Part shown: one piece after another, positions 58,987 through 61,682 of the stretch
Position numbering within the stretch: position 1 is the stretch's first letter
Layout: each line of letters begins with the position of its first letter
Source of the DNA: Geosiphon pyriformis uo1
Taxonomy: Eukaryota; Fungi; Glomeromycota
Reading direction: 5' to 3'
NCBI GenBank assembly: GCA_016748015.1
Contig: JAAOMT010000181.1
Coordinates: 69,784 to 133,783, forward strand
DNA length: 64,000 nt
Translations under genes and position numbers: made by a program
The notes under the pieces: model-generated
What the model was told of the DNA's origin: nothing
The model's database searches: none
The model's input: the letters and a program-made list of their open reading frames with translations, nothing else

Positions 58987-60372
58987 TTAAGTGTTCAAGT
59001 TTGGTTGTTGTTCTATTATAATTATTGGTTCTAAATTTCAGGGAATATCTTCAGGATTAATTAAAGAGGAATGTGTACCAATTTGTAGAATTAATGGTTC
59101 AGGATTGTTTCTGGAATGATAGTGTTTCAGTCTGTCTCCATGTGCAACTTTTGCTAATATTTTGTTATCAAGTCTTAACTTATATGATCCATTGCCTAGA
59201 ATTTCGTGAATATAAAATGGTCCATCCCATTTGTTTTCAAATTTCCCACTCCATTGTTTTTCAGCCTTAGTTCTGTATAAGAGAACTTTATTTCCAACTT
59301 TAAATTCGTTGATAATAGATGGTAATTTGTTGTCATGTCTTTCTTTTTGTTGAGCTTGGGAATGTTTAATATGAGCTGCTGTTATTCTTCTTTTTCCTTC
59401 CAGTGTACTAAGAAGAGTGTAGGCTCTTTTTTGGAGTGTCTCTTGAAAGTTTTCTTCATTGATTGGTTGCACTGGGTATGTTTCCACTGTGAAATTAATT
59501 GGTAATATTGCTGTCCTTCCATAAGTAAGATCAAATGGTGTGTGTTTCGTAGTATCTTGTTTTAGTGTTCTGTATGCTAGTAATACTGATGGAATAAAGA
59601 TATCCCATTCCTGTTCAAAGTCTGTTGAGACTTTGGCTAAAGATTCACACAATGTTCTGTTAAAACGTTCTACAAGTCCATTTGTTTGAAAGTGATAAGG
59701 TGATGATAAAGGTCTTTTGACATTGAACTGTTCACAAATTTTTTGTATCAAGTTGTTCACAAAATGTGTTCCTTGATCAGATAAGAGTTCAATTGGGCAT
59801 CCATGTCTACAGATAATGTCTTTATAGATGAAATTTGCTACTGATTTTGCATCTGCTCTTTGGATGGCTCTAGCTTCAGGCCATTTGGTAAGATAATCCA
59901 CTGCAACTGCAATATAACGATTTCCTTGGGTTGTGATAGGTAATGGTCCGACTAAATCAATTCCAACTCTGTCAAAAGGTTGTCCAACTTTGATTGGATT
60001 TAAAGGTTCTGTGGGGTGAGTTCCTCCTCTTCTCTGGCAGTTATCACAAGATTCTACATATTGTCGAATGTCTTTTTGCATGTAAGGCCAAAAATAATGT
60101 TCAAGGGTTCTTTGAATTGTTCCCTCTTTTCCCAAGTGTGCTAAAGACAGATCTGTGTGCATGTTGTATAAAATTGTTTCTTTTTCATTCTTTTGTACTA
60201 ATCTGAGTGGCTGGTTTGGTTTTCTGTGATTTTTATAATAAATTTTGTTCTGGTGTATGAAATATTGTTTTGATTGGTGTTGTAAGTGGTGTTTTTCACT
60301 TGGAGACCAGTTTTCTGGTATGATAAGAGTCTCCAAATAATTTTTAAGATTGCTGTAGTTTCTGGGATCTAT
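58987..60372 (-). CDS. Gypsy H integrase (HHCC-DDE-GPF, no chromodomain); start mutated ATG>ATA, open to a TGA at 59038
   Basis: HTDLSLAH...CDNC; GIDLVG, LSDQG and GLVERFN; WDGPFYI. Confidence 0.92.
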
Positions 60373-60429
60373 TCTTGTTTGGTTATTTTGTTGGTAAGTT
60401 GGTAAGTTGTGGTGGAATTGTTGTTGGTA

Positions 60430-61682
60430 TTAATCTTGTCTTATTCTTGAGAGGCTATCAACATTGATATGTAGTTTTCTTGGTTTGTGGTGTACAATAT
60501 ATCTGTAGTCTGCTAGAAAGTCATTCCATCGAGACTGTTTGGCACTTTGTTCAGTTTTCTTTTTATTGAGCCATTTGAGACCAATGTTGTCCGTTATTAT
60601 GTCAAATTTTTTTCCATTTTTCAGATATTGTTGAAAATGTTTAAAAGCCCAAATAACTGCAGCAGCTTCTAATTTAGTTGAGCCATATTTGAGTTCTGTT
60701 GGCTTGAGTGTTCTGCTGGCATAGGCAATAACTTGTTCTTGGCCATTTTTATCCAATTGTGATAAAATGGCACCAAATGCTATGTGTGAGGCATCAGTAG
60801 CTAATTGGAATCGTTTGTTGAAGTCTGAGTAAACAAGAACTGGGACTGTTGTCAATTTTGTTTTGAGAATTTCAAAAGCTTTTTGTTGTTCTTCAGTCCA
60901 TTTGTATGGTATGTTTTTGTTGGTAAGATAATTGAGTGGTTTGGCAATTTCTGAGAATCTTTTTATGAATTTTCGATAGTAAGAGGCTAATCTCACAAAT
61001 CCTCTTAGTTCTGTAGTATTTCTGGGGGTTTGAAAGTTTTTAACAGCATTGATTGTTCTTGGATTTGGTTTGATTCCATCTTTACTAACTATGTGTCCAA
61101 GAAAGATCAAACTTGTTTTTCCAAAGTAACATTTCTCAATATTTAACTTTAATCCTGCTTTCTGTAATTGTTGAAAAACTTCTCACAGGTAAATGAGATG
61201 GGCTTCGAAGCTTGGTGAGTATACATCAGTATCATCAAGATAAACAACTACTGATTACCACAAGAGCCCTTCATAGACAACATCCATGAGCTGCTGAAAT
61301 GTTGCTGGTGCATTGCAGAGTCCAAAAGGCATAACATTAAACTCATAATTTCCTTCTTGAGTGGTGAATGCTGTTTTGGGTCTATCTTTTGGGTCCATTT
61401 TGACTTGTCAGTATCCACTTTCCAGGTCTAAAGTTGAAAAGAACTTGGCTTTTCCCAGAGCATCTAGCATGTCATCAATTCTTGGAAGAGGGTAGGCATC
61501 TCCAATTGTAACACTATTCAGTTGTCTATAATCAACACAGAATCTAATTTTTCCGTTTTTCTTTTTAACCAAAACTACTGGTAAGACCCAAGGACTTCTT
61601 GATGGTTGAATCAATCCGTTATTGAGCATTCTTTGGACCTCTTCTCTGATAAATTGGTGGCTGGCAGGTGGCACTCGATAAG
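60430..61682 (-). pseudogene. Gypsy H reverse transcriptase and RNase H
   Basis: [44 protein letters not shown]. Stops at 61408 and ~61185 are derivable from TGG and CGA. Confidence 0.93.

Follow-up and report, generated by a model that had tools for sequence, protein, structure and literature searches.

A Gypsy lineage with a separate integrase frame

The Ty3/Gypsy lineage described here departs from the rule that Pol is a polyprotein. Its gag-pol frame closes just past RNase H, which leaves integrase and a small third protein to separate frames; we put the probability that this split is lineage-wide, and no product of decay, at about 95%. Judging from these frames, the element RNA is at least tricistronic. 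The analysis started from a 64,000-nucleotide stretch of Geosiphon pyriformis DNA (the window), which contains three Gypsy copies, H, I and G, on the minus strand, each with the order protease-dUTPase-RT-RNase H-integrase (Table 1). All three are dead copies of one Ty3/Gypsy lineage.

The proposal of the earlier note that integrase forms a separate cistron is strongly supported by stand-alone integrases, the ends of RT-RNase H proteins, split loci and an RT-RNase H tree. The H integrase was used as query, and of 1,260 matches of similar length the 120 best (359-453 aa) were taken as the stand-alone set. Methionine is the first residue in 118 of these 120; 99 start exactly at the alignment column of the H ATA, and 13 start at an internal methionine 17 residues downstream of it. 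The H RT-RNase H query, run among longer proteins, yielded 120 relatives ranked by BLAST score, of which the top 38 carry no integrase and have their C-terminus 1-30 residues past the last RNase H motif. The named close homologs of H belong to Rhizophagus and Cetraspora, so that the lineage probably resides in mycorrhizal-type fungi such as Glomeromycotina.

Among 80 metagenome loci examined, RNase H and integrase were both present in 43. Eleven of these, with integrase profile scores of 405-702, are all split and have an ATG at column 1, the column of the H ATA, whereas the 32 with scores of 375 or less comprise 26 fused loci and 6 broken ones without a column-1 ATG. The conservation of stop and ATG, proposed earlier as a check, thus holds in 11 of 11 close loci; all 11 have intact ORFs on both sides of the split, and the opposite scenario, a continuous RNase H-integrase frame in which the stop is a mutated codon, was not found among them.

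A set of 17 RNase H-integrase junctions was assembled from the 11 split loci, the 3 window copies and 3 further loci in which the upstream ORF was matched by eye to the RNase H tail of L005. The junctions range from -8 to 727 nt, with 3 in frame, 7 at +1 and 7 at +2, so readthrough and frameshifting are excluded as a rule for the lineage; the in-frame junction of L016 contains a second stop. Most junctions are spacers of 30-190 nt. L018, with an overlap of -8 nt, is the sole overlapping case, and none occurs in H, I or G. Integrase starts with ATG in the 14 relatives of this set and in copy I.

In the RT-RNase H tree (164 rows, FastTree), H and I fall into a 73-row clade (support 94) of 66 split rows, 7 unscored rows and 0 natural fusions; P0334 is outside this tree owing to a coverage filter. 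The integrase tree (39 rows, IQ-TREE, without row L027) contains a 30-row clade (100/99) of 27 split and 3 fused rows. The contiguous natural fusions, P0124, P0127 and P0334, are located within or at the base of the integrase clade, and the split locus L032 is also at its base; in an AU test, a pure split clade without L032 was neither rejected nor shown (p=0.067). From these topologies the split looks old, with occasional re-fusion, the evolutionary direction being unproven. Both RT-RNase H and integrase group with Gypsy proteins in trees built without named reference clades, and the best solved relative of the integrase profile is Ty3-G (7q5b). The search of representative proteins was dominated by multi-copy animal gene models and served mainly as an outgroup, and viral contigs gave 3 weak integrase matches.

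Fusions close to H among the longer integrase matches are mostly eukaryotic gene models of Rhizophagus and Cetraspora. The final RNase H motif is missing in 5 of 6 fused models checked and the RNase H-integrase joins lie at unlike places, which points to false introns.

Table 1. Coordinates of elements in the window and of selected features in related loci
Feature	Position	Strand	Remarks
Copy H protease and dUTPase region of pol	62070..63899	-	gag beyond the window
Copy H RT and RNase H	60433..61677	-	YLDD; D-E-D-D; three decay stops (RT)
Copy H gag-pol stop TAA	60430..60432	-	4 codons past the RNase H motif
Copy H RNase H-integrase spacer	60373..60429	-	57 nt, A/C-rich, one G, no ATG, no predicted structure
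Copy H integrase ORF	59038..60372	-	444 codons, stop-free, from ATA; HHCC, DDE, SH3; next in-frame stop 58989-58987
Copy H ORF3	58307..58816	-	small helical protein, no Pfam family; overlaps PPT and LTR start; start lost in N gap 58818-58841
Copy H polypurine tract (PPT)	58324..58337	-	
Copy H 3' LTR	57308..58323	-	1,016 nt, TG...CA, 7-bp inverted ends
Copy I RT-RNase H, decayed	53640..54878	-	ends at TAA 53642-53640
Copy I spacer	53579..53639	-	61 nt, +1 frame shift, A-rich, one short upstream ATG ORF
Copy I integrase ORF	52203..53578	-	from ATG 53578-53576; decayed: stops, one frameshift
Copy I ORF3	51507..52142	-	own ATG 60 nt past integrase stop; then PPT, LTR start at 51493
Copy G TAG and spacer	42720..42768	-	TAG 42768-42766; spacer 46 nt, G-free; copy heavily decayed
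Copy G integrase remnant	41447..42719	-	from ATA 42719-42717; several frameshifts
dUTPase between protease and RT	62070-62543 (H), 55477-55839 (I), 44527-44912 (G)		preceded by a Cys-rich insert
Solo LTR of the H family	49690-50666 (window 49686-50670)	+	78% identical to the H 3' LTR
LINE-type elements, several	3585-30623 and 46500-49740	both	endonuclease, RT, RNase H, RRM in ORF1
ORF3 in relatives	L001, L005, L007, L008, L009, L012, L013, L017		
Two-helix RNA motif	L005 4456-4513, L009 578-635, L012 178-235, L013 483-540, L019 168-225, L020 1-51, L026 485-542, L027 12-69, L006 15-72		
Lengthened RNase H frame	L005 3494-4441, L017 4942-6705; also P0354, P0329, P0344, P0473		75-590 residues, acidic Cys/His-rich tail
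Small ORFs between RNase H and integrase	L003 2548-2751; L024, L042, L054 just upstream of integrase		

Stop, spacer and start in the window copies

All three copies stop 4 codons past RNase H, with TAA in H and I and TAG in G. The earlier note had reported this common stop position, as well as an integrase start at ATG in I and at ATA in the same place in H and G, and all coordinates were confirmed on the minus strand. The copies belong to two families, which are about 50% identical in integrase, and the decay stops of H and I are scattered over Trp, Gln and Arg positions; a stop at the same site in three copies from two families therefore exceeds what chance would give. Copy I has RT-RNase H in one frame and integrase from its ATG in another, and carries an extra TGA at 53657-53655, at the Arg of a conserved SR. 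Copy G is heavily decayed by G-to-A and C-to-T changes and is located in the part of the window (32000-46000) where GC falls to 14-25%.

The spacers had been described as 57, 46 and 61 nt long and hence as not keeping frame. The lengths are right, but the conclusion on frame did not stand for H, whose spacer contains no stop and has a length divisible by 3, and the 46 nt of G say little about frame because this copy contains many frameshifts. The H spacer (A29 C19 T8 G1) leads directly into the ATA at 60372-60370. Since it is in frame and free of stops, H alone is indistinguishable from a decayed codon, and the argument depends on the relatives and on the contigs of a sequencing run. Across 60340-60465, 481 run X1 contigs contain no variant of the H TAA at 3% or more, while the same contigs vary at 15 places, including 60429 and 60435, and show no indel at 3% or more. 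These variant calls cover sites at least 31 letters from the aligned end, which includes the TAA at 34-36; the third base of the ATA (60370) is at the edge of the reportable range, and its blank was not used as evidence. Over positions 59000-62000, the N gap excepted, contig depths in run X1 add up to 65,000-520,000, compared with about 80-100 per single long contig. This suggests that the H family has very many copies, depth itself being no copy count.

These data bear on the explanation by which the stop is a decayed sense codon in dead copies of an active element with a continuous Pol. The in-frame spacer of H, the heavy C-to-T and G-to-A decay in this genome and the three natural fusions near the clade would agree with it. 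It is contradicted by the unvarying TAA of the H-family contigs, by the 11 of 11 close loci that are split between intact ORFs and by the 38 of 38 top RT-RNase H proteins that end at this place, and we regard it as extremely improbable.

A further explanation applies to the H family only, in which integrase might be reached by readthrough of the TAA, with the ATA as an ordinary codon downstream of a stop-free spacer. The lack of spacer indels in the 481 contigs is in its favor, and so is the ATA itself, which besides H and G occurs in run X1 in two groups of loose ends (5 and 4 contigs) and contrasts with the ATG that H retains at 5 of 5 other conserved Met positions. Readthrough in H is nevertheless very unlikely: 14 of 17 junctions are out of frame, the in-frame spacer of L016 is interrupted by its second stop, ATG is present in 14 of 14 relatives and in copy I, and G-to-A decay is common in the window copies. 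The same ATA pattern is suggestive of a near-cognate AUA as the putative integrase start of the H/G family.

The protease region of copy I is the site into which copy H has inserted; the 5' LTRs of both copies fall outside the window. The two 4-base flanks of a solo LTR of the H family are alike except for one C-to-T and one G-to-A difference about a CpG in the middle, which would fit a CpG-centred target site after decay. Several LINE-type elements in both orientations also occupy the window, and one relative, P0316, carries a NUDIX domain in pol.

Gag, ORF3 and additional cistrons

Gag was located upstream of pol in the relatives L005 and L017, and in L005 the stretch from gag through RNase H is a single frame of 1,479 codons. 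A CCHC knuckle and a protease motif precede RT in 7 of 57 clade proteins, many of these records being partial. In eight loci, and likewise in H and I, integrase is followed at the other end of the element by a third frame with its own ATG (ORF3, 119-230 aa), which extends into the PPT. In L012, the junction of integrase and ORF3 is ATGA. Fusions of ORF3 also occur, with integrase in L021 and with the entire pol in P0124.

The ORF3 protein is predicted to be all-helical with a confident model (pLDDT 91). It belongs to no Pfam family, its best PDB match has a Z of 5.0, and no BFVD match was obtained at E 0.001; these structural blanks do not show a new fold, and the matches in a structure atlas were uninformative. 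ORF3 and the RNA motif described below were both missing from the earlier note.

In some relatives the RNase H frame is lengthened by an acidic, Cys/His-rich tail, which is accompanied by the subclade RNA motif wherever both are visible. Extra small ORFs are found between RNase H and integrase in L003, L024, L042 and L054, and suggest more than three cistrons in some lineages.

Spacer composition and a subclade RNA motif

The omega leader of TMV is a 5'-terminal, G-poor, CAA-containing and unstructured leader, and the spacer of H had been described as resembling it. Like omega, the H tract is G-poor, contains CAA, is unstructured and precedes a start codon; unlike omega, it is internal to the RNA. 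The resemblance in composition holds in H, I and G, whose spacers are poor in G and have a predicted fold MFE of 0, but no omega-like sequence is conserved in relatives. G makes up less than 5% in 4 of 16 spacers (H, I, G and L021) and 9.5-22% in the other 12, and thus in 12 of the 13 spacers from relatives. CAA is enriched over shuffled sequences in H (9 vs 4.8, P=0.004), and not in I (P=0.53) or G (P=0.15). Since this enrichment is limited to H and the noncoding stretch past the H integrase is equally G-poor (3.1%), the likeness reflects local composition. Homology to omega was rejected, with CAA enrichment in one of three window copies and a tract that the relatives do not conserve.

What the short spacers have in common is few upstream ATGs and a good start context. 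A purine is present at -3 in 15 of 17 junctions and a G at +4 in 13 of 17. In the 13 short spacers, 2 ATGs occur where 12.5 (mononucleotide) or 9.6 (dinucleotide) would be expected, a depletion to be read with the caveats that the control word GTA is also depleted, that the division into short and long was post hoc and that four of the spacers share one motif. The three long spacers (278, 365 and 727 nt) contain 22 ATGs, matching chance, and are ATG-free over their last 151, 82 and 110 nt; the long spacer of L003 includes an ORF of 67 codons.

Immediately 5' of the integrase ATG, nine relatives share a two-helix RNA motif. It has a bulge of 11 nt and a loop of 8 nt in which CA..GUGA is invariant; the loop ends 12-24 nt from the ATG. 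Two-sided changes occur in 11 of 13 named pairs, and the inner helix is 98% paired. None of 500 shuffles attained the motif score, for a structure that was derived from the same nine sequences. Eight of the nine carriers form one integrase clade (100/93), and a covariance model built from the carriers matched strongly to those nine only among 27 loci. Neither the 17 other loci with junctions that were searched nor the junctions of H, I and G contain the motif; Rfam gave no match over it at E values up to 10 (7 loci), and its pattern had 0 matches in viral contigs. A single prokaryotic pattern match, in an Acidobacteriaceae MAG, reached 16.6 bits with the model and was taken as chance.

Possible routes to integrase expression

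As a reading of these junctions, we give even odds to integrase being made by restart and scanning on the full-length RNA. After terminating at the pol stop, ribosomes would stay attached to the full-length RNA, scan through the short spacer with its few ATGs and begin again at the integrase start, possibly a near-cognate AUA in the H/G family. In H, I and G, scanning would be helped by the lack of structure in a spacer rich in A and C, without any homology to omega, and in the sister subclade the hairpin may tune the same restart step. To gain access to the cDNA, free integrase would then bind RNA, Gag or RT within the particle; alternatively, it may load on the cDNA ends afterwards, in a transposase-like manner.

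Restart is favored by the overlap in L018, the ATGA junction in L012 and the short, ATG-poor spacers. Counted against it are the three long spacers with their 22 ATGs, the natural fusions P0124, P0127 and P0334, and an ATG-free leader that fits a subgenomic mRNA equally well. Restart past an ORF of 700-1,400 codons also normally requires a helper element. UGGGA is a ribosome-tethering motif of the calicivirus type; TGGGA was found in 0 of 11 junctions over the last 120 nt, and synonymous conservation did not rise near the pol stop. Because some spacers are long and no tethering element was seen, subgenomic RNA and internal entry keep some probability as routes.

Integrase, together with ORF3, could come from subgenomic RNAs of its own, generated by an internal promoter in RT/RNase H, by splicing or by processing at the hairpin, with the spacer as a 5' leader. 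This is a real though rather unlikely possibility. Long spacers with many ATGs count in its favor, an ATG-poor proximal leader and a good start context suit any scanned 5' UTR, and serial restart over three consecutive cistrons would presumably be costly; foamy viruses, moreover, produce Pol from a spliced subgenomic RNA (PMC7828637). The integrase start of L018, inside the RNase H frame, leaves no room for a leader, however. Splicing in particular is opposed by the absence of YAG from 7 of 16 spacers, four of which end pol with TAG; in H, L007 and L011, YAG is missing even when the stop is included, though acceptors may lie inside RNase H. The gene models are of no help to it, as their joins differ in place and, in 5 of 6 models checked, cut out the last RNase H motif. 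On these unlike joins and the 7 spacers without YAG, a conserved intron was not seen and was set aside.

Direct recruitment of ribosomes by the spacer would make use of the A-rich tract in H, I and G and of the conserved hairpin in the sister subclade, and is in our view improbable. The covarying two-helix motif of nine relatives near the integrase ATG and the MFE of 0 in the H, I and G spacers agree with such internal entry, and a putative inter-ORF IRES has been stated for many vertebrate L1s (PMC11485995). Against it, the motif is absent from 17 other junction-bearing loci and from H, I and G, has no Rfam match and owes its structure to the same sequences, and a 30-nt spacer or an overlap is too small to hold an IRES.

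Implications of the split layout

For LTR retroelements it is regarded as a rule that integrase is cleaved from the end of Pol, an arrangement that solves expression and packaging together. An abundant lineage that breaks this rule needs other routes for translating an internal ORF and for delivering integrase to the cDNA. Its natural eukaryotic polycistronic junctions, from an overlap to 700 nt, and the new covarying motif offer material for tests of reinitiation and internal entry in fungi. With this lineage, the proposed route from Gypsy to Ginger1 becomes testable. The split also explains many stand-alone "integrase core domain" genes and false RT-integrase models in the annotations of Rhizophagus and Cetraspora.

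A wider interpretation, which we consider unlikely, is that of a deep fungal Gypsy lineage with a tricistronic RNA, whose free, Ginger1-like integrase would load on the cDNA as a transposase does, at a dose governed by a so far undescribed structured RNA in one subclade and by AUA behind an unstructured leader in H/G. If true, the lineage would represent a surviving intermediate that links LTR retrotransposons with DNA transposons consisting of integrase only.

Comparison with known systems

In the literature consulted, no account was found of an integrase-only ORF in a Gypsy lineage, although Repbase, GyDB, supplements and most subscription papers may hold one, nor was a restart route for integrase found described in this class of elements. 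Gypsy elements are expressed in Rhizophagus irregularis (bioRxiv 10.1101/2021.03.30.436303). In canonical LTR elements, Pol is described as a polyprotein ending in integrase (PMC5911963, PMC3248453, PMC2864245, PMC2582038). The present elements share with Ty3/Gypsy members such as Ty3, Tj1 and DGLT-A the order PR-RT-RH-IN, the TG...CA LTR, the PPT and, in relatives, a CCHC Gag. They differ in that integrase is not released by protease from one Pol; it has its own start past a stop and is followed by a third ORF.

In the victorivirus HvV190S and the hypovirus CHV1, restart requires an AUGA or UAAUG overlap and an upstream pseudoknot (PMC6631646). The fungal host and a replication enzyme in a separate downstream ORF are common to both systems, as are the AUGA-type overlap of L012 (at ORF3) and the short overlap of L018; the mostly 30-190 nt spacers and the lack of a conserved upstream element among our findings set the Gypsy lineage apart. 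For LINE-1 ORF2, an AUG-independent restart has been proposed on a bicistronic retroelement RNA (PMC11485995). The inter-ORF spacer is similarly short, and an AUG-independent restart would accommodate the ATA of H and G. LINE-1, however, is a non-LTR element in which the split divides ORF1 from EN-RT and there is no particle to enter. Foamy virus Pol is made apart from Gag and packaged through RNA binding (PMC7828637); there, unlike here, the whole Pol is separate and comes from spliced RNA, and integrase is still cleaved from Pol.

Ginger1 DNA transposons encode a free Gypsy-type integrase of about 400 aa and generate CpG-centred 4-bp target duplications (PMC2836005). Like theirs, the integrase of this lineage is free-standing and has an N-terminal motif before the zinc finger: a conserved aromatic/Pro stretch is visible at the N-terminus of the stand-alone integrases, and Ginger1 is described with a YPYY motif. 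Ginger1 elements, by contrast, lack RT, are bounded by terminal inverted repeats and carry protease domains at the C-terminus. Membership in Ginger1 was rejected, given the RT-RNase H upstream and the LTR and PPT downstream of these integrases.
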